Positions 1,662 through 53,646 are shown, numbered from the stretch's first letter. The stretch is DNA of 64,000 nucleotides from Leptonemataceae bacterium (GCA_965227295.1 OZ245742.1:5408001-5472000), one strand, 5' to 3'. A program made the numbers and translations. The notes: a model not told the origin generated them from the sequence alone.

Positions 1662-1976
1662 ATGAAACGTTACGCCCGAATTACGAAAAAAATCCATCCC
1701 ATACTCGGCACCGCCCTGCTGGCCGTGGCCCTGAGCGGCGCCGGTTGCAAAAACGTCGTGGAGGAGAAGTGCTTCCAGGTCTGCGACATGTTCGCCGAAT
1801 GCACGGCAAAGATCCAGAAGATGCCGGTGAGCGGCCCCCTGCGCGGCAAGCTGGTGGAAGATTGCATGACTCCCTGCACCAATTATCACCACGAAATGCT
1901 GGGCTGTTACGAGGAGTTCGAAGGCTCCTGTGAAAAAATGGCGCTGTGTATCACAAACAGTGGGGTGCTATTTTGA
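1662..1976 (+). CDS. Small Cys-rich lipoprotein (Leptospira-type 8-Cys protein)
   Basis: Basic N-terminus, hydrophobic stretch, lipobox-like GAG-C, then 8 further Cys including CxxxC pairs; stop overlaps the next start (TTGA). Confidence 0.7.
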   Translation: MKRYARITKKIHPILGTALLAVALSGAGCKNVVEEKCFQVCDMFAECTAKIQKMPVSGPLRGKLVEDCMTPCTNYHHEMLGCYEEFEGSCEKMALCITNSGVLF

Positions 1977-3811
1977 CCGCCGGCCGTCCCGTCTTACTCT
2001 ACATCGCCCTTGGCCTGAGCGCCCTGGCCCTGGCGAGCACCCTGCCCTTCGATCCGCTGGACATCGACAGTTCTTCGTACGCGTTGATCGCAAGGGAGAT
2101 GATCGAAGAATCCCGCACCGATGACGACGAGGGCTGTGTCATCGATTCCGCCGTGAGCGCGAGCGGCGAGTGCGCCTGGTGGGAATCCTACGTCTTCCTG
2201 CGCCAGGGCGGACGCCGCTACTTCGATAAGCCCATCCTCACGTTCTGGACCGTGGCCGCGTCGTTCTCCGTCTTCGGCTTCTCGAACTGGGCCTACCGCC
2301 TGCCGGCCTTACTCATCACACTCATCTCCGTTTATTCCATCTTTCGCATCACGGTGCTCATCAGCGGCGATCGGCGGCGCGGGCTCATCGCGGCGCTGCT
2401 CTACGCCACGGCCCCCGGCGTCTTCGCGATGCTGCTGGATACGAAAATCGACGTCTATCTCAACGCGTATCTCATCTTCCTGCATCACGCCTACTACCTG
2501 GGCGTCAAAGAAAACCGGCGCTGGTATTTGCTCATGTACCTCTTCGCCGGCCTGGGCTTCATCACGAAAGGTCCCATCGCCGTGGCGATTCCGTGCATCT
2601 CCATCGGCCTGGACATCCTGGTACGCCGGGACTGGCAGCGCCTGGGATCCATGTACCTCGTCCCGGGAATTCTGATCGCTCTTATTCCGCCGGCGGTCTG
2701 GACCTTCTTCCTGTACCTCGAGTACGAGAGCTACGGACCGTACTACTTCCTGTGGCTGCAATCGTTTGGAAGATTCATCAGCAAAGCCAACTACAGCTGG
2801 TCCAAGAAGTACGATCCCCTGTTCTTCTTAAGTAACTTTGCCTGGGCCTTTGCGCCGTTCCTGCTCGCGTTGTTTTATCATGTCATCCGCGAGATTGCGG
2901 CGTTCTTTCGTCGCGGCGAGTACCGAACCCTGCTCTCCGATCTGCGCGGCAATCGTTACAAGGACCGGGACTTCACCTTGCCGTTCTGGTTGTTCGTCTT
3001 CATGGCGGGCATCAGCTTCTCGCGCTTCCAGTTGCCTCAGTACGTCTACTGGGTGTTGCCCGCCGCCGCGATCCTCACCTCCGGCGTCCTCGCACGCTAT
3101 CTTTACGGAGCCTATGCCCGCGCCCCGGAAGCGCCGGCGGCCAGCATGGTCGCGGCGGTTACCGGTACCGGGCGAGCCGAGGAACGCCAGGCACCGAAGC
3201 TGTTTCGCTACTTGTTGTACGTCGTGCCCGTGTTGATCGCAATTGTGTTGATCGCCGCCGCGTTTGTCACGTTTACGCCCGGCGTCTTGTACTTCGTGAT
3301 ACTCGTCGGCGGGGCGGTCTTCGCCTGGAACCTGCGTCGCGAACCGGGTACCGGCGTGGCCGTAACCATCGCGGCGATCCTCGCCGCTTACTTCGTCGCG
3401 ACGGCCTACATCTATCCCGACATGATTCGTTATCAGCCCGGGTCGCGCATGGGTCCCATCTTACAAAAGCTGGAACCGGAAGAAGACAACATCTACACCT
3501 ATCGTCTGTCGTTTTCTTACAAGAGCATCCCGCTCTACTCGTACAAACGATACCGGGTCCTCTACGATAAAGACAAACTGCGGCAGGAACTGCGTGAAAA
3601 AGGCTCCCGCCTCGTGGCGACTCACGAACGTTTCTATCCGGAACTGCAGTTATTCCTGAGCGATTGCTGCGAGGTGGAACTGGTGGAAAACTTCGAATGG
3701 TATAAGGTATCCATGCCGAAACCGAGGTTCTTCATTCGTTCGGAACGTCCCGAACTGACGCAAGGCCAGGGCATCATCGTCGCAAAAATGACGTTGAAAG
3801 ATTCCGAATAA
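1973..3811 (+). CDS. ArnT/PMT-like membrane glycosyltransferase (GT-C)
   Basis: D..YA.IAREM, YFDKP.L.FW, WAYRLP, GFITKGP, LPQYV motifs; many TM helices; TTG start overlapping upstream stop (ORF extends to 1946). Confidence 0.85.
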   Translation: MTAGRPVLLYIALGLSALALASTLPFDPLDIDSSSYALIAREMIEESRTDDDEGCVIDSAVSASGECAWWESYVFLRQGGRRYFDKPILTFWTVAASFSVFGFSNWAYRLPALLITLISVYSIFRITVLISGDRRRGLIAALLYATAPGVFAMLLDTKIDVYLNAYLIFLHHAYYLGVKENRRWYLLMYLFAGLGFITKGPIAVAIPCISIGLDILVRRDWQRLGSMYLVPGILIALIPPAVWTFFLYLEYESYGPYYFLWLQSFGRFISKANYSWSKKYDPLFFLSNFAWAFAPFLLALFYHVIREIAAFFRRGEYRTLLSDLRGNRYKDRDFTLPFWLFVFMAGISFSRFQLPQYVYWVLPAAAILTSGVLARYLYGAYARAPEAPAASMVAAVTGTGRAEERQAPKLFRYLLYVVPVLIAIVLIAAAFVTFTPGVLYFVILVGGAVFAWNLRREPGTGVAVTIAAILAAYFVATAYIYPDMIRYQPGSRMGPILQKLEPEEDNIYTYRLSFSYKSIPLYSYKRYRVLYDKDKLRQELREKGSRLVATHERFYPELQLFLSDCCEVELVENFEWYKVSMPKPRFFIRSERPELTQGQGIIVAKMTLKDSE

Positions 3812-11707: not shown

Positions 11708-12335
11708 GCAGGAATCCCCGCACGGCCCGGCCGCGATGGCTGCGCGCGTCTTTGTCCGCGGCATTCAGCTCGGCAAAGGATGCGCCGACGTCTGCGTCAT
11801 AAAAGATAGGATCGTAGCCGAAACCGCCGCGGCCCCGCTCTTCGAAGAGGATGCGCCCTTCAGCCACGCCGTCGAACCACCAGAGCGTGGACAGACCCCG
11901 CAAATCCGGTAAATCATCCGGGAGGCGGAGGGCGAGTACGCAAACAAACCGTGCCGTGCGTTGTTCTTCCGGAACATGCCGCTCGTCCAGGTTCTTCAGC
12001 ACCAGGCGCCGGCGATCCGCGTCGTCCAGACCGGGCCCGCCGTATCTGGCGCTGCGCACGCCGGGTTCACCGCCCAGCGCGTCCACGACCAGACCGGAGT
12101 CGTCGGCCAGGGCCGGCATCTTCGCGGCACGACAGAAGGCCTCCGCTTTCAGCCTTGCGTTGCCGGAGAAGTCGTCGGCGGTTTCATCGACGTCGAGACT
12201 GAGGCCGAGATCCGCAGGAGCGCGCAGTGTAATGCCCTTGGGCTCCAGCAATCGCCGGAACTCGGCCAGCTTGTGCGCGTTGCCGGACGCCAGCAGCAAT
12301 TGATGTGTACGGAGGATATCGCCGAGTCGGCTCAT
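11697..12335 (-). CDS. rdgB: Non-canonical purine NTP pyrophosphatase (RdgB/HAM1)
   Basis: ASGNAHKLAE, ADDSGL.VDAL.GEPGV.SARY, GFGYDPIF, SHRGRA. Confidence 0.95.
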   Translation of the reverse strand: MSRLGDILRTHQLLLASGNAHKLAEFRRLLEPKGITLRAPADLGLSLDVDETADDFSGNARLKAEAFCRAAKMPALADDSGLVVDALGGEPGVRSARYGGPGLDDADRRRLVLKNLDERHVPEEQRTARFVCVLALRLPDDLPDLRGLSTLWWFDGVAEGRILFEERGRGGFGYDPIFYDADVGASFAELNAADKDARSHRGRAVRGFLHAL

Positions 12336-12359
12336 GAGATATGCGAGGCCGGGTTGTAC

Positions 12360-12707
12360 TCAATCGCCGAAGGCCGAGACCGCGTCGTCCACGCCGGCAT
12401 GGATCGGGAAAACCTTGTCGACCATCGTGAGGCGCAGCAGGTCCAGAACGTCGCCGGGGACGACAACCAGGCGAATCTCACCGTCCATCTTCAGGATCTG
12501 CCGCTTGAGGGCGATGAGGGCGCCGAGGGCGGAAGAGCAGATGTAGCTGACGTTGCTGAGATCCAGCACAAAGCGGCGCTCGTCTCCCCCGCTGCGAATG
12601 AGGTCCTGCAGGGCTCGCTCCAGACCTTCCGTGTCAGCCATGCGAATGCGGCCGCCGAGCGTAAGCACGATGGTCTGCTCCTGTTTAAACTTTTTGCCGA
12701 GCTCCAT
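12360..12707 (-). CDS. STAS domain anti-sigma factor antagonist
   Basis: VLDLSNVSYICSSALGAL, 115 aa. Confidence 0.88.
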   Translation of the reverse strand: MELGKKFKQEQTIVLTLGGRIRMADTEGLERALQDLIRSGGDERRFVLDLSNVSYICSSALGALIALKRQILKMDGEIRLVVVPGDVLDLLRLTMVDKVFPIHAGVDDAVSAFGD

Positions 12708-23528: not shown

Positions 23529-24770
23529 TCAGATCGCGCGTTTTTTGCGCAGTTCCGTCGTTTGTTCGGGGCTGAATCCCAATTCACTTAAGATTTCATC
23601 GGTATGCTCGCCGTGCTCCGGAGGCGCCAGCGGGTAATCACACGGCGTGTCCGAAAATGCGAAGGGCGCGCCGATCTGGAGAATCTCGCCGAGACGCGGG
23701 TGTTGCATTCTGCGGACCATGCCGCGCTCATTCAGTTGGGGGTCCGCGAAAGCCTCCTCGATGCTGTTCACCGGGGCGAGGCAGGTCTCCGGATTCGCGA
23801 AGAGCTCCGACCATTCATCACGGTTGCGTTCGCGAAAGATCTGCTCCAGTTGCGGCTTGATCTTCGCGAGAGCGGCCGCCGTGAGCTCCACTCCGTCCAG
23901 GATTTCCTCGCGGCCGATCTGCCGCAAGAATCCGCGAAAGAAGCGCTCTTCGAGAGCGCCGAGCATGACGTAGCGCCCGTCCTTGCACTCGTAGACATTG
24001 TAGTTCGGCAGGCCGCCGCTCAGGTCCATCTCACCCCGGCGCGGGTTCTCACCGGACGCCATGTACTCGCCGGCGTGGAGGGAAAGAAAACTGAAGGCCC
24101 CGTCCATCATGCTGATGTCGACGAACTGGCCGCGGCCGGTTTTCTCGCGGGCGTAAAGTGCCGCGAGAATGGAAGACAGGGCGATGAGCGTGCCGCCGCC
24201 GATGTCGGCGACCTGGAAGCCCGGAAGCACCGGGGCCCCACCGGCATGGCCCGTGATGTCGAGCAGGCCGGAGTAAGCGATGTAGTTGCCGTCGTGTCCG
24301 GCCAGGCGTTCGTACGGGCCGCTCGCCCCGTACCCGGAGATGGCGCAGTAGATGAGGCGCGGATACTTTTCTTTGAGCTGCGGGTAACCGATGCCCATGG
24401 CTTCCAGCGTGCCCGGCCGAAATCCTTCGAGGAGGATGTCCGCGTCCTCCAGGAGTTTGTGCAACACCTCGCGTCCCTCCGGGCGTTTGATGTTGATGGT
24501 CATAGCGCGCTTGTTGCGGTTCACCATGAGATACAGGCCGCTCTCGTTGTCGTCGTTGCGCTCGCCGGCATTCTTTTGCCCGTCCTTGCCGAGGCGCGCG
24601 CCCATGAGCCGCGTCATGTCCGGCATGCGTGGGTTTTCGATTTTGATGACGTCGGCGCCCATGTCGCCCAGGTGCATGGAACACAGCGGGCCGGGCAATA
24701 GCAGCGAAAGATCGACGACGCGCACGCCGGCCAGCGGGCCGCTGCGCGAGGGGGTTCCGGTATGCGACAT
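23529..24770 (-). CDS. CaiB/BaiF family CoA-transferase
   Basis: [36 protein letters not shown]. Confidence 0.93.
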
Positions 24771-24916
24771 AACGAATGGCCAGCCTGGCACGGCGGCGCG
24801 CGGTACGTCAAGCCAGTGGGCGCAGGGAAAATGCTTTGATCTCAAAAAACCGTGGAGAACTACGACGATTGGAACTGGAAGTCGGCGCTGGTTTTCGACT
24901 CTTGCGTTAGCGATCT

Positions 24917-26464
24917 TTATTTCGCCGCGCGCTTCTTCGCATTGCGCTTACGAACCACTTTCCCGATCATACTTTGCGGCATCATCTTGCGCAGCGACGG
25001 GTCCTCGAACTTACTGCGCAGGAGCCAGTCTTTCTTAACGTACTTGCGTTGAAACTCTTCGGCGATGGCGATGATTTGATCGAGGTCGCTGGAAATGCGA
25101 ACGTCCTGTTGCAGCGGCTCCTTGCGATGAGCGGAGTAATCGGTGTAACTGAATACATAGGCGGGGTAGTCCGGATCGACTTCGTCTTTGTTCGTCTGCC
25201 ACACCACGAACTTACGCACGGCCTGTCGACCGCGGCTGTACACGAGGCGCAGTAGAATCTGTGACGGCGGATACTCAATGCGCGGGACGGTCGGCTGAAA
25301 ACCGTCGATGAACACAAGGTCCGTGATCTGGGTGATGCGGACGTCCGGATAAACGGCGGACTTATCCTCGCGCATCCGAATGAACGTATTGCGCTGCATG
25401 CTGACGAACGGCACGTTTCGCACGACGCGGTAGGTTTTGTAGGTTTCGTGCTCGTACTCCAGCAACATGCGCAGATACGGCCGGCCGCCGCTGCGTTTCG
25501 TGAGAATGTCATCGCTGTTGAACTCAATGACGATGCGCGGCTCCACCATGTGATAGGCCGACTGCTGCGAATCCACGTGCACGTACCCGGAATTGATCTC
25601 CAGCTTTCGTAGCCGGTCGTAAAGTTCGCGGCGTTCGTCGTCACTGAATCCGTCGGAGACGCGCGTTAGAATCTGGAACGTGCCGTCTTCGCGCATGAGC
25701 GCGGTGAGTACCGAAGCGACGCGGCCCTGCCCCCGCGCGTCCGTGAACGCTTTGTAACCGACGATCACCGCATCCACACGATGCTCCGCCTTGAACTTGT
25801 AGCGGAACGGCAGATCGCTGCGAATCATTACGCCTTCGGCGCCGAATTCGCGGACCTGGCGCTCGTAGTACTGTAAGATGTCGCCGCGATCTTCGCTGAC
25901 GATCGTTTCCACGGGCGGCACCGGAGTTCCGGCAAAGAGAGTCTGCAGGCGTTCGTAAACCTGATCGTAGTCGTCGAAGTACTCGCCGTCCAGTTCAATG
26001 ATATCGAACGGAGCAAACCAGAGTTGCTCCAGATCTTTCGCGGTCTCCGGCCGGGACGTCAGTCGAATCACGTCGAAGATGCGCGTACGGTTGCCGTCCT
26101 CGCGCAGGACGATGAGTTCGCCCGGGATCAGGGCCGTGCGCACGCCGGCACGTTTCAAGATTTCCGCGGCCGTGTCGATGACAGGCAGGCCAATGTAAAC
26201 CGCGCCGCTCGGTCGAATCAAACAAGCGTTGCCGCGCTCGTAATACAATATGCTGTGCTCGCCGTCCATCTTGCGCGAGACGTAGAAGCGCGAGCCCGGC
26301 AGCCGGGGGACATCGCCCGCGTTGATCGAAGTGAATCGTGCGGCGACCTTTTCTTTATAGTCGCGCACCATGCGCAGCAGGTTCGGCTCAATGCTCTCCC
26401 GCGGGAGAATGTGAAAGTCTCCCAGGATGCGTCGCGCGATGGATGGATCGAGGTGAATCCTCAC
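24917..26464 (-). CDS. ATP-dependent DNA ligase-like protein (NTase + OB + WGR-like C-terminus)
   Basis: Motifs I RKMDGEH, III GEL, IIIa FAPFDII, IV AEGVMIR, V YKFK; OB DAVIVGY, DGFSDDER; VI FIRMREDK. Confidence 0.85.
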   Translation of the reverse strand: MRIHLDPSIARRILGDFHILPRESIEPNLLRMVRDYKEKVAARFTSINAGDVPRLPGSRFYVSRKMDGEHSILYYERGNACLIRPSGAVYIGLPVIDTAAEILKRAGVRTALIPGELIVLREDGNRTRIFDVIRLTSRPETAKDLEQLWFAPFDIIELDGEYFDDYDQVYERLQTLFAGTPVPPVETIVSEDRGDILQYYERQVREFGAEGVMIRSDLPFRYKFKAEHRVDAVIVGYKAFTDARGQGRVASVLTALMREDGTFQILTRVSDGFSDDERRELYDRLRKLEINSGYVHVDSQQSAYHMVEPRIVIEFNSDDILTKRSGGRPYLRMLLEYEHETYKTYRVVRNVPFVSMQRNTFIRMREDKSAVYPDVRITQITDLVFIDGFQPTVPRIEYPPSQILLRLVYSRGRQAVRKFVVWQTNKDEVDPDYPAYVFSYTDYSAHRKEPLQQDVRISSDLDQIIAIAEEFQRKYVKKDWLLRSKFEDPSLRKMMPQSMIGKVVRKRNAKKRAAK

Positions 26465-27162
26465 GTTAGATCTTTCAACTCCAGGTTCGAAAGATGCAGC
26501 GCGAGGCGATAGGCGCGCCCGCGAACGCGTCCTTCAAGGAACGCACGGTACGGCAGGCCGCCGCGACTGAGCACCAGCGGCTCGTCTCCGCCGGGACCGC
26601 CGCCCAGAACCATGAAGGCGTTGCGTTGCTGAAGGTCCCGGGCCATGCCGTAGAGAAAGTCGTAGGTCAGGCCGTTGACGTGGCTTAACTGATACACACG
26701 AGAACTTACGAACATCGTGACGGCCTGGTCTTTCGAAAGATAACGTCCCGTCCACAGCACGGGGATTTCCGCGGAGATGTTGGCTTCGAGGGGCAGCCAC
26801 TCCCGGCGGCCCTGCTCGTTGCCGTCCGGGCCGTACTCGACTTCCTGCCAGCGGACCTGGTAAGCGATGTCCCCACCGGACTTGAGAAAGATGCGCCGGG
26901 TGTTCCGTACGATGCGGCCCGTGATCTCGAAATCGATCTCCGGGTCCTCGCGAATCAGAGCTTCGGCGACGTGTTCGGGACCGCCGGCTTCCGCGACGAT
27001 GCGTTCGTAACCGGTGGTCGCCGTGCTCTTCACGTAACGTACGGCTTGCGCCTGGTTTCCGGAGGCGTCCTGAAACGACGGGGCTTCCGCCTCAACCGGG
27101 GCGCGCTCCAGACCGACCAGTGCGTCACGGCGCTGATGATCGCTAAGATTGATTGATCGCAT
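26461..27162 (-). CDS. Hypothetical protein, possible divergent Ku-like core
   Basis: Coupled to both neighbours; C-terminal half (VYQL...YDFLYGMARDL...LVLSRGG...AFLEG...YRLALHL) resembles the Ku barrel pattern by eye. Confidence 0.6.
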   Translation of the reverse strand: MRSINLSDHQRRDALVGLERAPVEAEAPSFQDASGNQAQAVRYVKSTATTGYERIVAEAGGPEHVAEALIREDPEIDFEITGRIVRNTRRIFLKSGGDIAYQVRWQEVEYGPDGNEQGRREWLPLEANISAEIPVLWTGRYLSKDQAVTMFVSSRVYQLSHVNGLTYDFLYGMARDLQQRNAFMVLGGGPGGDEPLVLSRGGLPYRAFLEGRVRGRAYRLALHLSNLELKDLT

Positions 27163-27163
27163 A

Positions 27164-27802
27164 TTAAGAATCGTCTCCGGTTCCGCGCGAATGTCTTCCG
27201 GAACGTTGCATGGAAAAATCGAGGTCTTGCTCGCCCGGATCTTCGAATTCGTCGATGCGGCCGGTGTCCGCCCGTTCGAGGAAGTCCAGTTGTACGCGTC
27301 GACCGGTGACGAGAAAGAGTCGGCCCCGCGCGGGAATCAAGAATCCGGTCTCCGGCGAATGTCCCCCGCGGTACGAGAAGGGAAAACCGTAGAGTTCCTC
27401 ATGATCGCCGAGGGCCTCTGTTAATTCCGGAAGCGCCTCGCCGCGCAGAACATACACGGACGAAATCTCGTGATCATAATACTCATCGAGACCGAAGCGT
27501 TCCTGCAACACGATGGGTGCGTGAAACGCAGACGGCACTTCCGGTAACGGCCGGCCTGCGGCATCGACGGCGCTGAGCTCCGTGGGAGACAGCCACTGTC
27601 CGGCCTCGTTCAGATAACCGCTGCCCGTAGAACGAATCACGGTGGAGCCGTGATCATCGACGGCGGCCGGCTGTAGTTCACTACCGTAGTTGTCGACGGG
27701 CAGCCGTTCGCTGCGACCATAGAGCCGCGGCCGATCGATCTTCGCCGGCTGCAACGCAAACTCGCGGCCGTCGTGCAACTGGAATGTGAGAGTGCGGGGC
27801 AT
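27164..27802 (-). CDS. Hypothetical protein, possible divergent Ku-like core with acidic tail
   Basis: GSGYLNEAGQWLSPTEL, IVLQERF, VYVL...LTEAL, FSYRGG...GFLIPARGRLFLVT; ORF extends to 27841. Confidence 0.6.
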   Translation of the reverse strand: MPRTLTFQLHDGREFALQPAKIDRPRLYGRSERLPVDNYGSELQPAAVDDHGSTVIRSTGSGYLNEAGQWLSPTELSAVDAAGRPLPEVPSAFHAPIVLQERFGLDEYYDHEISSVYVLRGEALPELTEALGDHEELYGFPFSYRGGHSPETGFLIPARGRLFLVTGRRVQLDFLERADTGRIDEFEDPGEQDLDFSMQRSGRHSRGTGDDS

Positions 27803-27988
27803 CGCAGGGGAACTCTCGCGCAAGAACGCGATTTCTTCCATTAATAAACTACAAAAATGATCGGCACGGCGACCGTCCCGGGCAAGCCTGGAAGCGTGGG
27901 TCTCTCGATTTTTCTCGGCGACCGCATTACCGAGGGCCGGCTGCGTCCCGCGGATCGCGGGACGTTACCGAAGCGAATCTGCGCACAC

Positions 27989-28999
27989 TTACGGAACGAA
28001 TCGGCCGAGGACGCGCCGTAAGAATTCCTCGCCGCGTCCGTGACGAATGCGCAGCTCCATTTCGAGGACGTGCAACCGGGAGCGCCAGTCCGGGTTCTCG
28101 TCGCGGCGCAAAAGATCGTCGATACGCACGAAGTCCTTCGCCGTCGTAATCCAGGGCAGCTCCGGCGGATCGGCAAAGAGCCGGTCCAGGTCTCGCCGCG
28201 CATAGAAATGATGATCGGGAAAACTGCGGCGCTCTGTTAATATGATTCCATATGTACTTAAAGAATTAAAAAAGGCCTCCGGATTGCCGATGCCGCAGAA
28301 GGCTCCGGCCGGAGTCCCGGCGGTGAGCGGCGGTTCAATGGAACGCGGGGCGTGTTCGGCCTCGTAGATTGTTGCATGGGCATGCGCAGCCAGGGCTTCG
28401 TGCCAGGCCTTCAGCAACTCATCGCCGGCCAGGTTCGCCCTCGTCAGTAAGATCGTATCCGCGCGAGTTAAGGCATCGAGGCGTTCCCTGAAGCGGCCCG
28501 CGGGAAAGACCCGCACGCGCTCCGGCGGCACCGTAGCGTCGATCAACACGAGTTCGTGATCGCGATACACCAGGGGATTCTGAAAGGCGTCGTCCAGTAA
28601 AACGCAGTCCGCCGAAGTACCAAAACGTTCGATCAACACGGCCCGCTTCGGACCGGCCGCCACACGCAGCCCCGGCGAACGTGCGAGTAACAACGCTTCG
28701 TCTCCGGCCGTGCGGACATCCGCAAACAGCCGCTCGCCGTCGGAGACCAGGACACCCTCCGGATTCTTTGACGCCGTGGCCCCGTAACCGCGCAGAGCAG
28801 CCAGGGTCGGAATGCCCAGGCGTTCCAGTTCGGCGGCCAACAGTAACGTCGCCGGAGTCTTGCCGGTGCCGCCGGCGGAGATGTTACCGACGGAGACGAC
28901 GTACTTGTGTTCGTAACGCCGCTGATCCCGGAGACGACGGGCGTAGGTACGCCGGTGCAAGAACAGATAGAGTTCCTCAAGCAGGCGCAGAGGATTCAT
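27989..28999 (-). CDS. lpxK: Tetraacyldisaccharide 4'-kinase
   Basis: VSVGNISAGGTGKTP, RGYG, GDEALLL, LDDAFQ, AFCGIGNP, FPDHH, ITTAKD. Confidence 0.93.
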   Translation of the reverse strand: MNPLRLLEELYLFLHRRTYARRLRDQRRYEHKYVVSVGNISAGGTGKTPATLLLAAELERLGIPTLAALRGYGATASKNPEGVLVSDGERLFADVRTAGDEALLLARSPGLRVAAGPKRAVLIERFGTSADCVLLDDAFQNPLVYRDHELVLIDATVPPERVRVFPAGRFRERLDALTRADTILLTRANLAGDELLKAWHEALAAHAHATIYEAEHAPRSIEPPLTAGTPAGAFCGIGNPEAFFNSLSTYGIILTERRSFPDHHFYARRDLDRLFADPPELPWITTAKDFVRIDDLLRRDENPDWRSRLHVLEMELRIRHGRGEEFLRRVLGRFVP

Positions 29000-29000
29000 C

Positions 29001-30953
29001 TCAGCCTTCCGGGCGGCCGTCGGCGAACTGCATCTCGTAGAGCTTGCGGTAAATTTTACCGTTATCAAGCAATTCTTGATGCGTGCCGCGTTCCACGATG
29101 CGGCCCTGGTCGAGGACGAGGATCTGATCCGAGCGATAGATCGTCGAAAGGCGGTGCGCGATGATGAAGACCGTGCGCCCCTGGAGCAGGCGTTCCACGG
29201 CCTGCTGGACCAACAGCTCGCTCTCGTTGTCCAGGTTCGAGGTGGCCTCGTCGAAAATCAAAACGGGAGGATCCAACAAGAGTGCCCGCGCGATGGCGAG
29301 ACGCTGGCGCTGACCGCCGCTCAACATCACACCACGTTCTCCGATGGGAGTATCGTAGCCTTCGGGAAGTTTTTCGATGAATTCGTGGGCGTTCGCCGCG
29401 CGGGATACTTCCTCGACACGTTCGTTGGAAACATCCGGCCGCGCGTAAGCGATGTTCTCGCGCACGGTGGCGTTGAACATGAACACGTCCTGGCTGACGA
29501 TGCCCACGGCCTTGCGCAAATCGGTGAGTTCGATTTCCCGAATATCGACGCCGTCGATGCTGATGCTGCCGGCGTTTACATCATAGAGACGCGGCAGGAG
29601 GTCCACCAGGGTACTCTTGCCGGCACCGGACGAACCGACAAGGGCGACGCTCCGCCCGCGTTCCACGGAAAAGCTGATGCCTTCGAGAGCCGGGCGCTCG
29701 CTGCCGGGGTATCCAAACGTAACATTATCGTAAGTTACGGACTTACGCACGTCTTTCAGCGGCTTCGGGTTCGGCGCGTTCTCCACGCCCGCCGGCAGGT
29801 CCATCATCTCGAAGATCCGCAGCGCCGCCGCATGGGTCGCGCTGAGCAGGTTGATCATGATCGAAACATGTTTGATAGGCCGCATCACAAACAGCAGCGT
29901 CAGAAAAAAACCGAAGAACTCGCCGCGGTTCAGCGGATTCTCCCGACCGATGGCCATGGTGATTTCGTAAGCGCCCCAGACCAGGAAAGCCGCCACCACG
30001 GCCGTGCCCGTGAACTCGGTGAGCGCCGGACCCACCTGGTGAAAGTAATGTCCCTTAAACGTATGGCTGTAGAGGCGTTCGTTGATTTCGCCGAAGCGAC
30101 GGCGTTCGAAACCTTCCATGGAAAACGCGCGAATCACGCGGATGCCGCCGATGACTTCCTGAATGTGCCCGCTCAGATCGGCCAGCTTCTCCTGTTGTCC
30201 CGTGTAAGCCCGGCGAATGCGCGTGGCGAAGTTGCTCACCGGCACAACGACGATGGGCACGATGAACACCGAGATGAACAGCATCTGCGGTGAAATGTAT
30301 GCGAGCAGGCCCAGGTGCGTAAGGATGTAGAAGATGTTGATCAGCGCCTCGTTGAATTCAACGGAGATGGACTTCGCCACCACCTCGACATCGTTGACGA
30401 TGCGCGACATGACGATGCCCGTGCGTTCTTTCTGAAAGTAATCGATGCCGAGCCGGTTGAGCTGGCGATAGAGGCGCATGCGAATGTCCCGCACGGCGTA
30501 TAAACCGGCGGTGCCGACGAAATAGACCGTGCCGGTGATGCAGACGATCTTCAATAGATAGACAGGAAAAATCGCCAGGCACAACCAGATGATGGCCTCG
30601 CCCGCCGTACTTCCTTCCACCTGGCGATTCAACCAGACTTTTGCGGCGGTGAACTGAGCGCGTAAGACCTCGGTGGATTGGTCCTGCCGGCCCTCGAGAT
30701 AGATCTCGTACTGCTTTTGTTCGTCGTCGCCGATCTCAAAGAGAACCACGGTGCCCTCTTTGCCCATGAGATTGAATATGGGAATGAACGCCGTGAGGGA
30801 AACCAGGTTCGTCAGGGAAACGACGAGCGCCAGCACGAGACCGGCGACGATGCGCAGACGATAATGAAATACGTAAGCGAAGAGCCGGCCGAGGACCCGC
30901 AGCCGGCCCGGATCGTTCTGATCGGCGTCTTTCTTAACATCTTTCTGTGACAT
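29001..30953 (-). CDS. msbA: MsbA-like ABC exporter (lipid A flippase candidate)
   Basis: TM domain + GSSGAGKST, LSGGQRQR, DEATS; lies between bamA and lpxK. Confidence 0.85.
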   Translation of the reverse strand: MSQKDVKKDADQNDPGRLRVLGRLFAYVFHYRLRIVAGLVLALVVSLTNLVSLTAFIPIFNLMGKEGTVVLFEIGDDEQKQYEIYLEGRQDQSTEVLRAQFTAAKVWLNRQVEGSTAGEAIIWLCLAIFPVYLLKIVCITGTVYFVGTAGLYAVRDIRMRLYRQLNRLGIDYFQKERTGIVMSRIVNDVEVVAKSISVEFNEALINIFYILTHLGLLAYISPQMLFISVFIVPIVVVPVSNFATRIRRAYTGQQEKLADLSGHIQEVIGGIRVIRAFSMEGFERRRFGEINERLYSHTFKGHYFHQVGPALTEFTGTAVVAAFLVWGAYEITMAIGRENPLNRGEFFGFFLTLLFVMRPIKHVSIMINLLSATHAAALRIFEMMDLPAGVENAPNPKPLKDVRKSVTYDNVTFGYPGSERPALEGISFSVERGRSVALVGSSGAGKSTLVDLLPRLYDVNAGSISIDGVDIREIELTDLRKAVGIVSQDVFMFNATVRENIAYARPDVSNERVEEVSRAANAHEFIEKLPEGYDTPIGERGVMLSGGQRQRLAIARALLLDPPVLIFDEATSNLDNESELLVQQAVERLLQGRTVFIIAHRLSTIYRSDQILVLDQGRIVERGTHQELLDNGKIYRKLYEMQFADGRPEG

Positions 30954-34413: not shown

Positions 34414-36141
34414 TTAAGAAGCCATACTGCGATCGTTCTTCTCGCTTTTTTTCTCCAGGAGGCGCCGCGCGTGCTCGTAGACGACAGAGCCCGTGGCATC
34501 GCCGCCGAGCATCCGCGCCATTTCGCGGAGGCGTTCTTCTCCCTGGAGCCGCCGCACACGTGTGGTGGTCCGGCCTTCGCGCTGCTCTTTGCGAATGCGA
34601 AAATGCTGATCCGCCAGGCTGGCGATCTGGTGCAGGTGGGTGACCACCAGGACCTGGCTCTGGCCGGCAAGACGCTGGAGACGATTGCCGATGGTGTGGG
34701 CGACTTCGCCGCCGACACCGGCGTCCACCTCGTCGAAGACCACGGTCGGCGTGGGCCGATGTGCAAAAAAGATGCTCTTTAAGGCGAGGGTGATTCGGGA
34801 AAGCTCGCCGCCACTGGCCACTTTTCGCAGCGGCTGCAGGGGCTCGCCGGCGTTGGCAGCGAGCAAGAATTCCACGCGGTCCAGGCCCTTTTCGTGAATG
34901 AGATGGCGATGCGGCCCCTCCCCGCGCGTGTCCGGGTCCACTTCCCGGCGGACGCTGACCTGAATGCGAGCACCCGGCATGCCCAGATGCCCGAGTTCCG
35001 CGGCGATCTGCTCCTCCAGATGCGAGACAACGGAACGACGGCGACGGGAAAGATCCTCCGCGCGATCGTAGAGTTCCCCGGCCGTAATCTGTAACCGGGA
35101 GCGCAGTTCTTCCAGTTCCTCCTCGCTCATTTCAATAGACGACAGCTCACGCAGGTAGCGATCCCGGGCCAGGAGCACGCTTTTCGTGCTTCCGCCGTAT
35201 TTCTTGTGGAGGCGCTGATAGCCGGAGAGTCGTTCTTCGATGTCTTCGAGGCGCTCCGGAGAAAACTGCAGCCGGTCCTTTTGTTCACGGAGCCAGTCCG
35301 CCGTAGCTTCCAGGGCATACAGGCTTTCGCTGAGATTCCCGAGATGTTCATCGATGCCGCCGATGAGGTCCTGGTGGCGGACAAGCAGGTTGTGCACGGT
35401 ATCCAGGCGGTCCAGAACGGAGTGGTCCTCCTCCCGGAGGGCGCTGTATGCCGCGCAGAGATCCGAAAACAAACGACCGCTGTTCTGAATGAGCGCCTTT
35501 TCCTGCTGGAGTTCTTCGTACTCTTTTTCCCGCGGCTCGAAACCTTCAATGTCGTCCAGGGCAAACTTGAGAAAGTCGAGGCGCTGTTCGCGCTCGTCCG
35601 CCTCCAGCGTGACCGAACGGAGCCGGTTCTTTAAGTGTTGAAAGCGATGATAGAGTTCCGCCGTTTCGTGGCGGAGCTCCGTGGTACCCGCGAAAAGATC
35701 CAGGCTGTCCAGATGGTTCTCCGGATCCAGGATGCGCTGGTGTTCGTGCTGGCCGTGGATTTCCAGGAGGTGCGCGGCAAGGCTGCGAATGACACCGAGC
35801 GTCGTGGGGCTGCCGTTCACGTAGGCCTTACCGCGACCGTCCGCGCTGATTTCCCGCCGCAGTTCCAGGTAGGCATCCTGCGCGGAGATCTTCTTCTCTT
35901 CTAAAATAGAACGGACCACCCCGGCGGCGCCGATTTCGAAGAGGGCTTCCACCACCGCCCGATGGGAACCCGAACGCACCAGGCCCGCGCCGGCCCGGGC
36001 GCCCAGCACCACGTCCAGCGCGGTCAGCAAGAGGCTTTTGCCCGACCCGGTTTCACCGGTGACGGCGTTGAGGCCCGGGCCGGGGCGGATGCGTAGTTCG
36101 TCGATGATCCCGAAATTTTCGATTTTGAGTTCGAGCAGCAT
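34414..36141 (-). CDS. recN: DNA repair protein RecN
   Basis: TGETGSGKS, EIHGQHEHQ, KVASGGELSR, FDEVDAGVGG, VTHLHQIA. Confidence 0.96.
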   Translation of the reverse strand: MLLELKIENFGIIDELRIRPGPGLNAVTGETGSGKSLLLTALDVVLGARAGAGLVRSGSHRAVVEALFEIGAAGVVRSILEEKKISAQDAYLELRREISADGRGKAYVNGSPTTLGVIRSLAAHLLEIHGQHEHQRILDPENHLDSLDLFAGTTELRHETAELYHRFQHLKNRLRSVTLEADEREQRLDFLKFALDDIEGFEPREKEYEELQQEKALIQNSGRLFSDLCAAYSALREEDHSVLDRLDTVHNLLVRHQDLIGGIDEHLGNLSESLYALEATADWLREQKDRLQFSPERLEDIEERLSGYQRLHKKYGGSTKSVLLARDRYLRELSSIEMSEEELEELRSRLQITAGELYDRAEDLSRRRRSVVSHLEEQIAAELGHLGMPGARIQVSVRREVDPDTRGEGPHRHLIHEKGLDRVEFLLAANAGEPLQPLRKVASGGELSRITLALKSIFFAHRPTPTVVFDEVDAGVGGEVAHTIGNRLQRLAGQSQVLVVTHLHQIASLADQHFRIRKEQREGRTTTRVRRLQGEERLREMARMLGGDATGSVVYEHARRLLEKKSEKNDRSMAS

Positions 36142-36304
36142 GCGGACATAATACAACACTACTCAAAAGTTATGCAATCAAAATTTTATGTCACCCAGGG
36201 GATTTCTCCTCCGGCGGGACACTTTTGCAAAACCTGCTGTAACCCGGGAAGGAACGGAAATTCTAAACATAGTACAAATTATCTTATAACTCGGAGGAAT
36301 GATC

Positions 36305-36727: not shown

Positions 36728-39526
36728 TTACGTGGTCCGGTCTTCCGAATCTTCCAGCAACCGCAGCATTTCAGCCTTCTTCGGCACGCCCCCGGCACCA
36801 TCGCCCTCCCCGGCGGCAAACATTCGATCAAACAACACACGTTTGCGCCGCTGCAATTCCAGGACCTTTTCTTCTATTGTATGTTCCGCGATCAAACGGT
36901 AGACGAACACCGGCCGCTGCTGGCCCATCCGGTGCACCCGATCCGTAGCCTGGCGCTCCGCCGCGGGATTCCACCAGGGATCCAGATGAATAACCGTATC
37001 GGCGCGATGCAACGTGAACGCCGTGCCCCCGGCCTTCAGGCTGATCAGTAACACGAAGTACCGGCCGGCCTGAAACTCCCGAACGATCTTCTCACGCCGC
37101 CGCGCCGGGGTCTGCCCGTCGATGCGCGCAAATTCCAGTCCCAGGGATTTCAGCAGCGTTTCGGCGATATCCAGGGCGTCGGTGAACTGACTGAAGATCA
37201 GGATCCCCGCCGCGGAGTTACGCAGTTCGGTGAGCATGTTCGTAAGATGCAGAAACTTTCCGGACAATGCCGGGTCCGCCGCGCGCCCGCGATCGAGTTG
37301 CGGGTGGCAGGCCAGCCGGCGCAACCGCATGAGTTGCGGCAGGATCTTCGCGACATAGTCGGAGCCGTCGTTGTTCATGCGACGGACCTCGCGCACTGCC
37401 GCCCGCCGGGCGTTTTCATAAAGGACACGCTGGCGTTTTTCCAGAGCGATGACGATGCCGGCCTCCGACAACGGCGGCAGTTCTTTAAGAACGTCACCGC
37501 GATGGCGTCGTAAGAGAAACGGCCGAATGCGCGCGCGCAGATCGCCAAGGTCCGCATCGTCTCGACGATAACGACGCAAGTAGGCCGCGCGCTTTTCCAG
37601 TAAACCGGGCAACACCAGATCAAACAACGACCACAGCTCGGCCAGATCGTTTTCGATGGGTGTGCCCGTGAGCGCGATGATCGAACGCGCGCGTACCTGG
37701 CGCAGTGCGCGCGCGGATTTGGAACGATGATTGCGAACGTGCTGGGCCTCGTCTACGAGTACGGCGGCGAAGGGCTGCGTCAGCGGAGAGGATGATTCCG
37801 CGGATTCCGTGAGATCGCGGCTCAGTGTGGTGAACGTGGTCAGGATGATTCCTCCGCCCCGTGTTTTCTGCGCCTGTCGCCGCTCCGGACCGTGATGCAC
37901 ATGCAAGGGCAGATCCGGTACGAACTGCTCCGCCGCGGATCGCCAGACGCCAAGGGCAGCCGGCGGGCCGACGACCAGGAACTTCGACTTCGTTTCGCGC
38001 GCATACAACTCGGCCAGAAACGCGAGGCCCTGGATCGTTTTGCCGAGGCCCATGTCGTCCGCCAGGATTCCGCCGGCTCCGCATTCGTAGAGATCCAGGA
38101 GAAAACCGAGGCCGTCTTTCTGGTACGGGCGCAGCTTCCCTCGAAAACCGCGGGGCTTCGGGCGACGACGGCCGGCCCGCGCGGGAACATCGTCCGAGCG
38201 CAGCCGGGCAATGAGATCGGGGATCCGTGACTGCTTCGGTAGTTCCAGGTCTGCGGCATCCAGGGCCGCCCCCAGGCGCGCCACCTCCGCGGGCAACATC
38301 CGACCGATCTTTTCGTCCAGCTTCCGGTCGATTTCGCGGAGTGCCGCACGCAGCCGTTGCAGGCTCGCATCATTCACACGCAGCCACTCACCGTTCGTGA
38401 GCCGCGCAAACTCCCGCCGCTCCCGAATCGCCGCCATCACCGCGGCCCGATCTTCCGCGCTCAGCCCCGTGATCCGTAGATGGCCTTCGAGCCAGGCGCT
38501 GACCGCGCCGTGCTTCGTTACAGTCGATTCGAATCGCAATCCCGGACGATAGCGCGACTCACCGCCGGGACGCAAGCCGGCGAGATCGCGATGCAACCGC
38601 ACCCGAACACCGGTCGCTTCGAGTTCCGGCAGGCGATCCAGAAACTCCGCCGTCCGGCCGGCGGCGGGCCGGTATTCGCCGGAGGGCAACCGTACCGGCA
38701 AGGGCAGGTCCCCTTTCAGAAGCCGGCCTTCAGCTTCCGGGCTGCGCCGGGCAAGCCGGCCGTGCTCATCGCTTTCATAAAAGTCGCGGGCCGGCGAGAG
38801 CGGAAACACGGCGACCTCCTCGCTATCCGCCGCTCCCGTGTAAGCGAACTGGAGGCGTGCCAGCAACTGCAGGCGCCGCGATGAAGCCAGCGGCTCCAGC
38901 GAAAGCAAGTACAACGGGCCGATCGTGTGGGGTTCCGGGAGCAGATCGCCGTAGTCCAGGCCTTCGACTCCCGCCTGCAGCCAGCGCTCCCGGGACGCAA
39001 GGACGTCCGCGAGACGCAGCTCGCGGAGGAAAGCGGTTCGCACGGCCTCAAGCTCCGGTGGCCAATTGAGGGCGTAGATCTCCTCGGTCTTGTAGGAACT
39101 CCTACGGGAATGGCCCCAAAATACCGCGGCCCCGGCCGGAATTACCTCGTACTGATCCTGGTTTTTGTTCGCGGGTACCAATGGGAGGATGGCATAGCCC
39201 GTGGCTGTCTCCCGGAGCTCGGCGCTGACCGTTCGCGGCGGGCCGGGTCGCAGCCGTTGATCGTTCGGGGCGCCCCGGATCTCCACGCCCTGTAGGAACT
39301 TCGACACCGCAGAGCGGCGCAGGAGTCCGGCCAGTTCCCGGGCCGGCACCCGGCCGCCACGGGATCGCGCAAGCCAGGCGCGCACCGTCTCCCGAAACAC
39401 CGGGGCCAGACGATGAGCTTCCCCGGCCCGGGCGAGGGACGGCGACAGCGTTCCGTTCGGATCGCGTGTATGGCAGGTAAAATGGGTTCCGTCGCCGGCA
39501 ATGCGGAGGACGAGAGGCGCGCTCAC
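36728..39526 (-). CDS. SNF2-family (DEAD/DEAH-like) helicase/ATPase
   Basis: LRPYQ, LADDMGLGKT, DEAQ, LTGTPIEN, FSQF, DPWWNPA.E.QATDR.HR.GQ. Confidence 0.92.
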   Translation of the reverse strand: MSAPLVLRIAGDGTHFTCHTRDPNGTLSPSLARAGEAHRLAPVFRETVRAWLARSRGGRVPARELAGLLRRSAVSKFLQGVEIRGAPNDQRLRPGPPRTVSAELRETATGYAILPLVPANKNQDQYEVIPAGAAVFWGHSRRSSYKTEEIYALNWPPELEAVRTAFLRELRLADVLASRERWLQAGVEGLDYGDLLPEPHTIGPLYLLSLEPLASSRRLQLLARLQFAYTGAADSEEVAVFPLSPARDFYESDEHGRLARRSPEAEGRLLKGDLPLPVRLPSGEYRPAAGRTAEFLDRLPELEATGVRVRLHRDLAGLRPGGESRYRPGLRFESTVTKHGAVSAWLEGHLRITGLSAEDRAAVMAAIRERREFARLTNGEWLRVNDASLQRLRAALREIDRKLDEKIGRMLPAEVARLGAALDAADLELPKQSRIPDLIARLRSDDVPARAGRRRPKPRGFRGKLRPYQKDGLGFLLDLYECGAGGILADDMGLGKTIQGLAFLAELYARETKSKFLVVGPPAALGVWRSAAEQFVPDLPLHVHHGPERRQAQKTRGGGIILTTFTTLSRDLTESAESSSPLTQPFAAVLVDEAQHVRNHRSKSARALRQVRARSIIALTGTPIENDLAELWSLFDLVLPGLLEKRAAYLRRYRRDDADLGDLRARIRPFLLRRHRGDVLKELPPLSEAGIVIALEKRQRVLYENARRAAVREVRRMNNDGSDYVAKILPQLMRLRRLACHPQLDRGRAADPALSGKFLHLTNMLTELRNSAAGILIFSQFTDALDIAETLLKSLGLEFARIDGQTPARRREKIVREFQAGRYFVLLISLKAGGTAFTLHRADTVIHLDPWWNPAAERQATDRVHRMGQQRPVFVYRLIAEHTIEEKVLELQRRKRVLFDRMFAAGEGDGAGGVPKKAEMLRLLEDSEDRTT

Positions 39527-49464: not shown

Positions 49465-50430
49465 TCAATAACTGAGCGGGGCCGGAAATACGAAGTTGAT
49501 GCCGAAGATGTAACCGAACCTCTCGACGACCTCCGGCGGCGGCGGTCCGAAGTTCTGGTTCTTGAGCGTATTCACGCAGGCCTCATCCACGCGGCTCTGG
49601 CCGATGCTCTCCACGATCTTCACATCGATGACCCGGCCGTCGGGATCGAGGAGAAACTGTACGCGGACGATCTGGGGTTTCACCTGTTCGTTGACCACGA
49701 CGCCGTAGGGATCGCGGTAGGCCCAGTTCCCGAGCAACGGAAAACCTTCCCGGATCTGGCGGATCATGCGACGAAAGTACGGGGCGCCGACGAGCTCTTC
49801 GCGAGCGATCGAAAACATTTCGCGCCCGTCGTAACGCAGCGCGAAGTCCTGCTGAAAACGATAGTTCGCCGGAATGCGCGTGAGGCGGCCGGTGCCCTTC
49901 TGGCCGCTGTTGCCTGGATTGTTCGAAGCCGTGCTCTTGCGTTCCGGATCGGGGCGCGCCTCGTTTTGCGGATCGATGTTGTCGCCCTCGCCGGTGGGAC
50001 GGCGGCGTTGATCCTGACTGCGTTCCTCTTGTTGCGGCTGCGCGGCCGGCACCGCGGGACTGCCGCCGAGTTCCATGGTGTCGTCGGCGGTGAGCGTGTG
50101 AAAGCCCGGCGCGACGGTAATGGCTCCCTGACCCTCGGCACTGACGTCGGAAAGCGCGCGGATTTGATTGCTCTGTGCCTTCGGGGCGAACTCCTGTTCG
50201 ACCAGCACCGGATAGACGCGCTGCATGCGCTCGCGATTCTGCGCGACAAGCTGCGGTTCGTTTAACGTGGAAAGGATGGGCGCAATGTGACGCGCGTAGA
50301 TTTGTCCGAAGACCAGGCTGAACACCAGGAGCACGGGCACGCCGGCCGCGATGAGGCGGTGGTCGTCGTCGTTCGCTCGCGGGAGCGGCCGGTGAAAACT
50401 AAAAAGGAAGGTCTTGATCGCCGAAAGCAT
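49465..50430 (-). CDS. TonB C-terminal domain protein
   Basis: Single TM, low-complexity linker, VRVQFLLDPDGRVIDVKIVES.G...VDEA...FGPPP. Confidence 0.8.
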   Translation of the reverse strand: MLSAIKTFLFSFHRPLPRANDDDHRLIAAGVPVLLVFSLVFGQIYARHIAPILSTLNEPQLVAQNRERMQRVYPVLVEQEFAPKAQSNQIRALSDVSAEGQGAITVAPGFHTLTADDTMELGGSPAVPAAQPQQEERSQDQRRRPTGEGDNIDPQNEARPDPERKSTASNNPGNSGQKGTGRLTRIPANYRFQQDFALRYDGREMFSIAREELVGAPYFRRMIRQIREGFPLLGNWAYRDPYGVVVNEQVKPQIVRVQFLLDPDGRVIDVKIVESIGQSRVDEACVNTLKNQNFGPPPPEVVERFGYIFGINFVFPAPLSY

Positions 50431-53219: not shown

Positions 53220-53646
53220 ATGAAAATCAAGAACAGCATCGTTGTACGGTAAACTGCTTATGAGCCGCGCTTTCGTGCCGGTAATAGAGAAAAACGGCGG
53301 CGGGGCCGTAGCCAACATCCTCACGTTGGTCGCCCTTGCCAGCATGCCGGGCCTGGCCGTCTACAACGCCTCGAAGGCCGCGGCCTGGTCGGCTTCGCTT
53401 TCATTGCGGGCCAGCCTCGCAAACAAACCCGTCACCGTGCACAACGTCTTTCCCGGCGCCGTGGATACGGACATGCTGGCAGGCGTGGAGATGCCGAAGA
53501 CGAGCCCGCAAGATGTGGCGGAGGCTGTCGTGGCCGGCATCGTCGCCGGACATGAGGACATCTTTCCGGATCCCATGGCGGAGTCGATGTATGCGGAGTG
53601 GCGGAAGGATCACAAGGCCGTCGAGAAACAGTTCGCGGCCATGTAA
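53220..53646 (+). pseudogene. SDR oxidoreductase with internal deletion and frameshift
   Basis: CAGGAG RBS + MKIKNSIVV then stop; other frame carries YNASKAA and PGAVDTDM; TGxxxGxG cofactor motif missing. Confidence 0.8.

Follow-up and report, generated by a model that had tools for sequence, protein, structure and literature searches.

A conserved gene trio of a Leptonemataceae bacterium as a candidate sequence-cryptic variant of bacterial DNA end joining

Introduction

The two-component form of non-homologous end joining (NHEJ) in bacteria is carried out by a Ku homodimer (PF02735, COG1273) together with LigD, for example in M. tuberculosis and in B. subtilis (YkoV/YkoU). The Gam protein of phage Mu, which is related to Ku, binds DNA ends and blocks exonucleases. 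Here we describe three coupled genes found in a stretch of 64,000 nucleotides from the genome of a Leptonemataceae bacterium (GCA_965227295.1 OZ245742.1:5408001-5472000); this whole stretch is called the window below. The third gene encodes an ATP-dependent DNA ligase, and the first two, named A and B, encode small proteins for which a Ku core fold is predicted. We consider the module to be a sequence-cryptic variant of bacterial end joining, in which a Ku-fold pair and a ligase-only enzyme would make up a self-contained system for joining breaks, and we put the probability of this reading at about 0.6.

A genetic precedent for a Ku heterodimer in bacteria is given by the Ku3-Ku4-LigD4 system of S. 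meliloti, with two Ku genes and one ligase in the part of the source that is cited here (PMC6379672). If a Ku-fold pair can be combined with a ligase in this manner, then we can ask: How much of such a system can be recognised once its sequences lie outside the described families?

Organisation of the three genes

Three coupled open reading frames (ORFs) lie on the minus strand of the window in the order A-B-ligase, according to the ORF listing. The module consists of the following elements.

27164-27802, minus strand: gene A, 212 amino acids (aa), acidic, predicted Ku fold
27160-27166, minus strand: A-B junction TAATATG, made of the A stop, one base and the B start
26461-27162, minus strand: gene B, 233 aa, basic, predicted Ku fold
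26461-26464, minus strand: B-ligase junction GTGA, where the GTG start of the ligase overlaps the TGA stop of B
24917-26464, minus strand: ATP-dependent DNA ligase gene, 515 aa, in which a nucleotidyltransferase (NTase) and OB core is followed by a conserved domain and a basic tail at the C-terminus

The tight coupling of three minus-strand genes, which was the starting point of the original prediction, is borne out by both junctions, TAATATG reading from 27166 to 27160 and GTGA from 26464 to 26461. Across the related loci described below, the A stop and the start of the B ORF are separated by a median of 13.5 nucleotides (nt). The ligase start falls at a median of -4 nt relative to the B stop, thus the overlap of B and ligase is conserved.

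The longest ORF of gene A extends over 27164-27841 (225 aa), with an upstream in-frame ATG at 27841. Position 27802 is the second ATG and gives the 212-aa form, which is present as P0121 in the protein collection. The N-termini of the relatives of A, with the consensus MAKxLxF, match the start at 27802. Because the 212-aa form in the collection and the N-termini of homologues agree, 27802 is likely to be the true start. A start at 27841 would give the protein 13 extra residues that are absent from its relatives.

Predicted fold of proteins A and B

The AlphaFold2 model of A had a mean predicted local distance difference test score (pLDDT) of 84.3 and a predicted template modelling score (pTM) of 0.69 (alignment n=44); the corresponding values for B were 76.2 and 0.57 (n=38). 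Both models were compared with PDB structures by Foldseek. The A model had 50 matches at E<=1e-3, the best of them being the B. subtilis Ku core 9vnq_A (7.6e-6, 200 columns), and the B model had 52, with the bacterial Ku homodimer 8v53_B at the top (1.2e-5, template modelling (TM) score 0.46) and with M. tuberculosis Ku 9i91_A (1.6e-5) and 9ig8 also matched. Among the matches listed (36 for A and 35 for B), all are Ku chains or Ku-containing NHEJ or DNA-PK assemblies; where the match is to a large assembly, the Foldseek output does not say what molecule the matched chain represents. The listed structures comprise the bacterial Ku homodimers 9vnq, 8v53, 9i91 and 9ig8 and human Ku70/80 (1jey and 1jeq among the B matches). 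The release dates of the bacterial ones fall in 2025-26. For both proteins the Foldseek probability of the match to Ku was 1.00, and the alignments covered 192-254 columns, near the full length of bacterial Ku.

The BFVD viral library gave the same picture for B. It contained one match at E<=1e-3, the Ku protein of Mycobacterium phage Dylan (3.8e-4, TM 0.48), followed by a COG1273 Ku homologue at 1.7e-2. These two phage Ku proteins were the only matches below E 0.05, and all lower rows had a probability of 0.20 or less. Gam was absent among the fold matches listed for A (PDB) and for B (PDB and BFVD).

The two models are built alike. Each has two N-terminal strands, an extended stretch of 70-85 residues with few intramolecular strands, and an alpha/beta core. 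By comparison with Ku, the extended stretch may represent the arms which form the Ku bridge. Taken together, the models support a predicted Ku core fold, a barrel with extended arms, for A and B each.

The by-eye assignment of A and B to Ku in the original prediction thus stood in one respect, since the predicted fold agrees with it and Foldseek listed only Ku among the PDB matches, but not in another: the Ku residue pattern that it described is not backed statistically, as the hhalign probability against canonical Ku was 0.07% for B and 0.15% for A.

Sequence families and charge of A and B

No family in Pfam or NCBIfam (E<=1) or in PADLOC was found for A or for B, and their PHROGs rows were at chance level only. 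The relatives of both proteins are nevertheless numerous. A word-based search with A gave 8 relatives among 903 candidates, and a search of 1.84 billion proteins with the A profile brought up 929 representatives at E<=1e-3 and 616 at E<=1e-10, of which nearly all are free-standing and about 200 aa long. For B, 1245 relatives at E<=1e-3 were found among 2029 candidates, all of them unnamed or called "hypothetical protein"; the latter label is also used in RefSeq (WP_010249818.1, WP_163211192.1, WP_051697788.1). A search of the ESM Atlas with a B relative gave zero usable matches and no model. The description of the module as undescribed therefore held, because no family library names A or B, the RefSeq relatives are hypothetical and the trio was not found in the literature. 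The literature was searched by full text, with subscription journals and supplementary files outside its scope; no published description of the trio was found there, and a prior description may exist.

The two families differ in charge and in conservation. The median isoelectric point (pI) is 4.2 in the A family versus 8.8 in the B family, a charge complementarity which we counted in favour of A-B pairing. The core of A has a median net charge of -10.5 and its last 40 residues one of -11. The mean pairwise identity is 48% for B versus 38% for A. Two features were located at the C-terminal end of A.

27209-27295, minus strand: acidic low-confidence tail of A, residues 170-198 (pLDDT 57-69 after residue 170)
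27209-27226, minus strand: conserved hydrophobic tip DLDFSM, which ends this tail

The tip follows the pattern F-x-[M/L] (D-F-x-M). In 35 of the 44 aligned A proteins a single residue separates it from the C-terminus, and the A protein of the window has 14 additional residues after DLDFSM. An acidic tail with a hydrophobic tip is an SSB-like arrangement. It may serve as a docking peptide for the ligase.

Seven B relatives (P0040, P0045, P0080, P0094, L028, L068 and L067) carry Lys/Ala-rich tails of 79-153 aa with 17-40 Lys and Arg residues, one of which contains AVKKAAVKKAAVKK. These tails resemble the KKAPAKK repeats of the canonical mycobacterial Ku proteins collected for comparison. The tailed proteins are 314-388 aa long, and their basic C-termini are rich in Lys, Ala, Pro and Thr, with repeats such as AVKKAAVKK; the genes of three of them lie at L028:6001-7167, L068:6001-7113 and L067:6001-6945. 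In other lineages, including that of the window, a basic tail is found on the ligase and not on B. The C-terminus of bacterial Ku is described, in the cited part of the source, as an arm binding DNA and LigD (PMC9638933).

The ligase

The third gene product was compared with family models and with a 62-sequence alignment of its own family. Its features on the DNA are the following.

26270-26272, minus strand: codon of motif I Lys65, in a column at least 95% identical in 62 family members
25361-25729, minus strand: OB domain, residues 246-368, PF04679 match ending in motif VI RMREDK
25025-25282, minus strand: conserved C-terminal domain, residues about 395-480, conserved in the 62-sequence alignment
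24920-24982, minus strand: basic C-terminal tail, residues 495-515, ending KVVRKRNAKKRAAK; most relatives are without it

All the ligase motifs that had been recognised in the original prediction were located, and they are conserved: motif I KMDG (65-68), III GELI (115-118), IIIa FAPFD (150-154), IV EGVM (210-213), V KFK (223-225) and VI RMREDK (363-368). The family alignment is at least 95% identical at the Lys, Asp and Gly of motif I, the Glu of motif III, the Glu-Gly of motif IV, the first Lys of motif V, and Arg-367 with the following Asp-Lys in motif VI; the second Lys of motif V is 80-95% identical. The motif I lysine of nucleotidyltransferases is the adenylation site, and Lys65 is expected, by analogy, to be that of this ligase.

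The PF04679 match (residues 246-368) had an E-value of 1.3e-9 and a score of 38.7 bits against a cut-off of 27.5. The best NCBIfam model was TIGR02779 (NHEJ_ligase_lig, LigD-type) with 1.7e-18, and its 66.9 bits lie below the cut-off of 227.75; the score against TIGR02776 was also below the cut-off (49.8 versus 373.2 bits). In PHROGs it matched phrog_114, ATP-dependent DNA ligase (6.7e-12), and the best PDB sequence matches were the archaeal ligase 2hiv (1.1e-5) and human LIG1. A weak sub-threshold match to the mRNA capping enzyme domain was also present (E 0.012). By its scores against family models, the ligase is closest to the ligase domain of LigD.

The stripped-down character that had been claimed for this enzyme applies to its core, where an NTase and an OB domain were found and a match to a polymerase or phosphoesterase was not, but the conserved C-terminal domain of about 85 aa does not fit it. 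The C-terminal 136 aa gave only a chance-level match in Pfam (E 0.038), and the C-terminal domain only unnamed clusters in the ESM Atlas, with scores below 0.9. The last 30 residues have a net charge of +8 in the window versus a family median of +1. A review of ligases mentions uncharacterised ligase diversity, and the part of it cited here does not mention the clade of the window ligase (PMC7470946).

In two loci the ligase is split into two ORFs, L001 (1883-2599 and 2436-3461) and L045 (6699-7115 and 7121-8137), by a frameshift or stop codon or by an assembly error. L001 (ligase split, 1883-3461) is the closest genomic relative of the window B, with 53% identity.

Conservation and distribution of the trio

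Species-representative genomes were scanned with the B alignment, giving at least 599 pattern matches, of which at least 544 encode a B relative. The statistics below concern the best 80 loci of these (at least) 544; 70 of the 80 are fully flanked and 10 are cut by contig ends. With phmmer, B was detected in every one of the best 80 loci and A in 70 of them; the ligase was likewise present in 70. The fully flanked loci were divided according to gene content.

A-B-ligase, same strand and order: 59/70 fully flanked loci
A-B only: 5/70 fully flanked loci
B-ligase only: 3/70 fully flanked loci
B alone: 3/70 fully flanked loci

As required by the original prediction, the triplet recurs in other genomes, in 59 of the 70 fully flanked loci, with 13 phyla represented. 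A adjoins B in 64 of the 70. One of the 59 loci, L031, has its ligase about 2 kb downstream of B with two ORFs between. All-against-all clustering of the locus ORFs revealed no fourth conserved gene, as no further cluster occurred in more than 7 loci except antisense shadow ORFs of the three genes, and the sampled neighbours of the loci are heterogeneous.

The 13 phyla of the best 80 loci are led by Planctomycetota (32 loci), Bacteroidota (16) and Bacillota (9), followed by Spirochaetota and Actinomycetota (4 each), Acidobacteriota (3) and seven other phyla with 1-2 loci each. In the B tree the sequences cluster mostly by phylum: the tree needs 20 label changes (minimum 12), the mean of shuffled labels is 44.6, and 0 of 200 shuffles gave a value as low. 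The pairwise-distance matrices of A, B and ligase correlate over 60 loci (Spearman 0.74-0.75), and for the two pairs tested, A-B and B-ligase, 0 of 500 permutations reached the observed value; this correlation could be explained by shared phylogeny alone.

A distribution of this kind raises the possibility that the module serves not in chromosome repair but in DNA-end protection or genetic conflict, moving between lineages, either as a Gam-like block of RecBCD/AddAB-type nucleases or for resealing restriction- or CRISPR-type breaks. The presence of the trio in 13 phyla, which are to some extent intermixed on the B tree (20 label changes versus a minimum of 12), the heterogeneous neighbourhoods with no conserved flanking gene, and the helicase genes that adjoin the module in some loci (L002; L014 and three others) would all suit such a role. 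However, the B tree follows the phyla for the most part, far from the shuffled mean of 44.6 changes. A tblastn search with B also gave no match in the plasmid collection (72,556 records) or the phage collection (50,697 records), no PADLOC-DB v2 family was found for any of the three proteins at E<=1, and no PHROGs family for A or B. The setting in the window, moreover, consists of housekeeping genes (lpxK, msbA-like, bamA, guaB) with unremarkable G+C. We consider this explanation distinctly unlikely.

Several loci with reduced gene content fall in one Pirellulaceae subclade of the B tree. B stands alone in L020:6001-6711, L021:6001-6711 and L054:305-1021, and L038:5385-6720 has A-B without ligase; in the flanks of these loci no trace of the missing genes was found. 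Lineage-specific loss of the partner genes, or their relocation, would seem to account for this. The B of L054, from a record labelled Glaciecola sp. (Pseudomonadota), lies inside the Pirellulaceae clade with a very short branch (0.076), and a mis-binned contig is more likely here than gene transfer.

Proposed mechanism

The analysis shows that the three genes are coupled, that the trio is conserved, that the ligase carries its motifs, and that a Ku-like fold is predicted for A and for B. Beyond this, we infer a ring, the pairing of A with B, the binding of DNA ends, recruitment by the tail, and the role of the module in the cell. The acidic A and the basic B, each with the predicted Ku core fold, would most likely form one asymmetric A-B ring, which would thread onto a DNA end and protect it. 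Basic surfaces would contact the DNA, with the Lys/Ala-rich tails on B or on the ligase adding to them in some lineages. A would recruit the ligase through the acidic tail and the hydrophobic tip on it, probably via the family-specific C-terminal domain of the ligase, and the ligase, adenylated on Lys65, would seal compatible 5'-phosphate and 3'-OH ends. As neither a polymerase nor a phosphoesterase is dedicated to the module, it would join clean or cohesive breaks, or would borrow end-processing enzymes from elsewhere in the cell.

A bolder version can also be formulated. In it, A and B represent a second, ancient and profile-invisible Ku lineage which forms an obligate asymmetric heterodimeric ring, and a handshake between the A tip and the C-terminal domain of the ligase recruits this enzyme. 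We put this forward tentatively, as somewhat less probable than even odds.

Evidence against the proposed reading and alternative explanations

Several observations weigh against end joining by a Ku-fold pair. At the level of sequence, neither A nor B matches PF02735 in Pfam at E<=1; the positive control, Corndog gp87, was found with 1.4e-28. Searches of PDB sequences with the A and B profiles at E<=10 gave no Ku. The hhalign probabilities already given (0.07% for B, 0.15% for A) refer to a canonical Ku alignment of 24 sequences built from the relatives of Corndog gp87; in that comparison A 87-122 is paired with Ku 80-115, a stretch about equally far from the N-terminus of each protein, and the pairing is not significant. 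A and B are also not detectably related to each other by sequence (hhalign probability 0.67%). At the level of structure, TM-scores are only 0.34-0.50 with a root mean square deviation of 6-12 A, and these are values for predicted monomers. A is strongly acidic even in its core (net charge -10.5), which is unusual for a subunit that encircles DNA. No polymerase or phosphoesterase domain of Pfam or NCBIfam is present on the 515-aa ligase, and no conserved neighbour supplies one. The trio is incomplete in 11 of the 70 fully flanked loci, and a six-frame profile search of the retrieved flanks detected no remains of the missing genes; therefore A is not always required, nor is an adjacent ligase, and these 11 loci argue that A-B pairing may not be obligatory everywhere. 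Finally, the Ku fold is found in other settings. Human INTS13-INTS14 is a Ku-fold heterodimer with a role other than end joining, and in the cited part of the source INTS13-INTS14 and M1AP are presented as Ku-fold paralogues with non-NHEJ roles which have diverged past easy sequence recognition (PMC11377751); because of these examples, the fold alone is not proof of end joining.

The first part of this evidence leads to the question: Could the likeness to Ku be an artefact of modelling or searching, or a convergence? A and B would then be other accessories of the ligase, e.g., subunits that act in trans and bind nucleic acids for the sealing of nicks or for RNA repair. This would agree with the silence of Ku sequence profiles, with TM-scores below 0.5, and with the sub-threshold capping enzyme match (E 0.012); the ligase, moreover, does not have the DNA-binding domain found at the N-terminus of Lig1-type enzymes and might depend on a partner for binding. 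But two models without mutual sequence similarity converge on one fold family, zero non-Ku structures occur among the PDB matches listed, and BFVD gives Ku and nothing else above noise. The best family models of the ligase are also DNA ligases, with the NHEJ ligase domain first. An artefact or convergence of this kind seems very unlikely.

The charge of A and the incomplete loci bear on another question, namely which of the two proteins would form the ring. B alone may be the Ku equivalent, in a homodimeric ring, and A an acidic Ku-fold adaptor or regulator, acting either as a recruiter of ligase by its tail or as a DNA-mimicking brake on B. This alternative is kept alive because 11 of the 70 loci lack A or ligase, with B-ligase lacking A in 3/70 and B alone in 3/70. 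A is acidic throughout (pI 4.2, core -10.5, tail -11), B is better conserved (48% versus 38% mean pairwise identity), and Lys-rich tails of the DNA-binding type were acquired by B relatives only. Against it, the match of the A model to full-length bacterial Ku chains is no worse than that of the B model (9vnq_A, 7.6e-6, 200 columns), A adjoins B in 64 of 70 loci, and the one-base A-B junction and near-equal sizes suit stoichiometric partners. We regard the B homodimer as unlikely, and keep the A-B ring in the preferred reading of a Ku-fold pair with a ligase-only enzyme.

Genomic setting

In the window, the module is flanked by lpxK (27989-29068) and by a gene of the family III CoA-transferases (23529-24845). 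The wider neighbours are an msbA-like ABC transporter gene and bamA on one side and guaB on the other. FlaA and flagellin genes are also present in the window, which has a spirochaete-like look. The G+C content of the module is 0.60-0.61, the same as in the flanks; because of this equality, a recent horizontal arrival of the module in this genome was considered and rejected.

The stop of lpxK and the likely start of A are separated by a gap of 186 nt (27803-27988), in which a simple scan found zero sigma-70-like promoters. A scan of 24600-28200 was uninformative, with 0 promoter-like sites where 1.1 were expected and 3 terminator-like sites where 3.5 were expected. Rfam and tRNA scans of the window gave no matches. 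PF02735 Ku was absent among the 52 window ORFs scanned.

Three genes for DNA transactions lie on the same strand within about 25 kb: a RecN-like SMC_N/AAA_23 protein (34414-36159), a 932-aa SNF2-family helicase (36728-39526) and RuvB (50399-51496). The match of a 134-aa ORF at 53242-53646 to profiles of short-chain dehydrogenases is confined to their C-terminal part (positions 111-189 of the 195 in adh_short), and this ORF may be a truncated gene or have a mis-set start.

Some neighbours recur in the other loci. A gene for a protein with BRCT, MerR-HTH and TPR lies directly 3' of the ligase in four Planctomycetota loci (L024:8401-9549 and three more) and could encode a damage-linked regulator. 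A Strawberry-notch-like helicase of about 1200 aa (AAA_34, Helicase_C_4) is encoded directly downstream of the ligase in four loci (L014:8102-11701). A protein kinase gene recurs in five loci, and in L014 it follows the helicase gene (11720-12691). In L002, a DEAD/ResIII helicase of 1097 aa is encoded immediately upstream of A.

Implications

Surveys of end joining in bacteria are based on the sequence domain of Ku, and a Ku-fold pair invisible to profiles would alter which bacteria count as capable of template-free joining. In the cited part of a study of Ku evolution, eukaryotic sequences were trimmed to pfam02735 (PMC11936186). The scale of the matter is given by at least 544 stretches of species-representative genomes, with 13 phyla in the best 80 loci. 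If a second Ku lineage does exist, end joining would reach phyla that PF02735 censuses would miss, including Planctomycetota, gut Bacteroidota, Spirochaetota and Clostridia. The trio would then offer a compact bacterial model of a two-subunit Ku ring, comparable with Ku70/Ku80, and a new mode of recruitment, in which an acidic tail with a hydrophobic tip docks on a new ligase domain. The carriers include gut Bacteroidota, Prevotella and cellulolytic Clostridia, where the outcome of nuclease-based genome editing depends on the existence of end joining. Two of the carriers, Pseudobacteroides cellulosolvens (L069) and Acetivibrio cellulolyticus (P0028), are culturable and non-pathogenic.

Comparison with known systems

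The nearest described system is bacterial Ku-LigD. As there, a Ku-fold protein (about 200-290 aa) is encoded beside an ATP-dependent ligase, the best model for the window ligase is the LigD ligase domain, and the best structural matches of A and B are the Ku homodimers 9vnq, 8v53 and 9i91; the Lys/Ala-rich C-terminal tails on some B relatives are also like those of mycobacterial Ku. In contrast to Ku-LigD, two different Ku-fold genes are present and not one. A and B match neither PF02735 nor the canonical Ku profile, and one subunit, A, is strongly acidic, with an acidic tail and a hydrophobic tip. The ligase differs from LigD in having no polymerase or phosphoesterase, in its score (66.9 versus 227.75 bits) and in its own conserved C-terminal domain.

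Ku3-Ku4 of S. meliloti are recognisable Ku proteins, described as orthologues that work with full LigD enzymes, whereas A and B lie outside the recognisable Ku sequence family.

The eukaryotic Ku70/Ku80 pair with DNA ligase IV is similar in that two diverged Ku-fold proteins go with a dedicated ATP-dependent ligase, and human Ku80 and Ku70 chains are among the fold matches of both A and B. The bacterial proteins, unlike Ku70/Ku80, correspond to the core alone: with 212 and 233 aa, against chains of about 500-700 residues, they are too short for a vWA domain or a C-terminal arm domain. An XRCC4-like partner was not detected either. Ku70 and Ku80 are paralogues, but A and B have no detectable common sequence ancestry, and their heterodimer is a proposal that we infer from the arguments above.

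INTS13-INTS14 and M1AP are eukaryotic, have vWA domains and no link to a ligase, unlike A and B, which are bacterial and ligase-linked. The predicted role of A and B in protecting ends would be like that of phage Mu Gam, a small Ku-related end-protecting protein; Gam, however, is phage-borne and ligase-free, and B was unmatched in phage records. The trio, which fails the sequence tests on both the Ku and the LigD sides and is without the accessory domains of LigD, would work like bacterial Ku-LigD.

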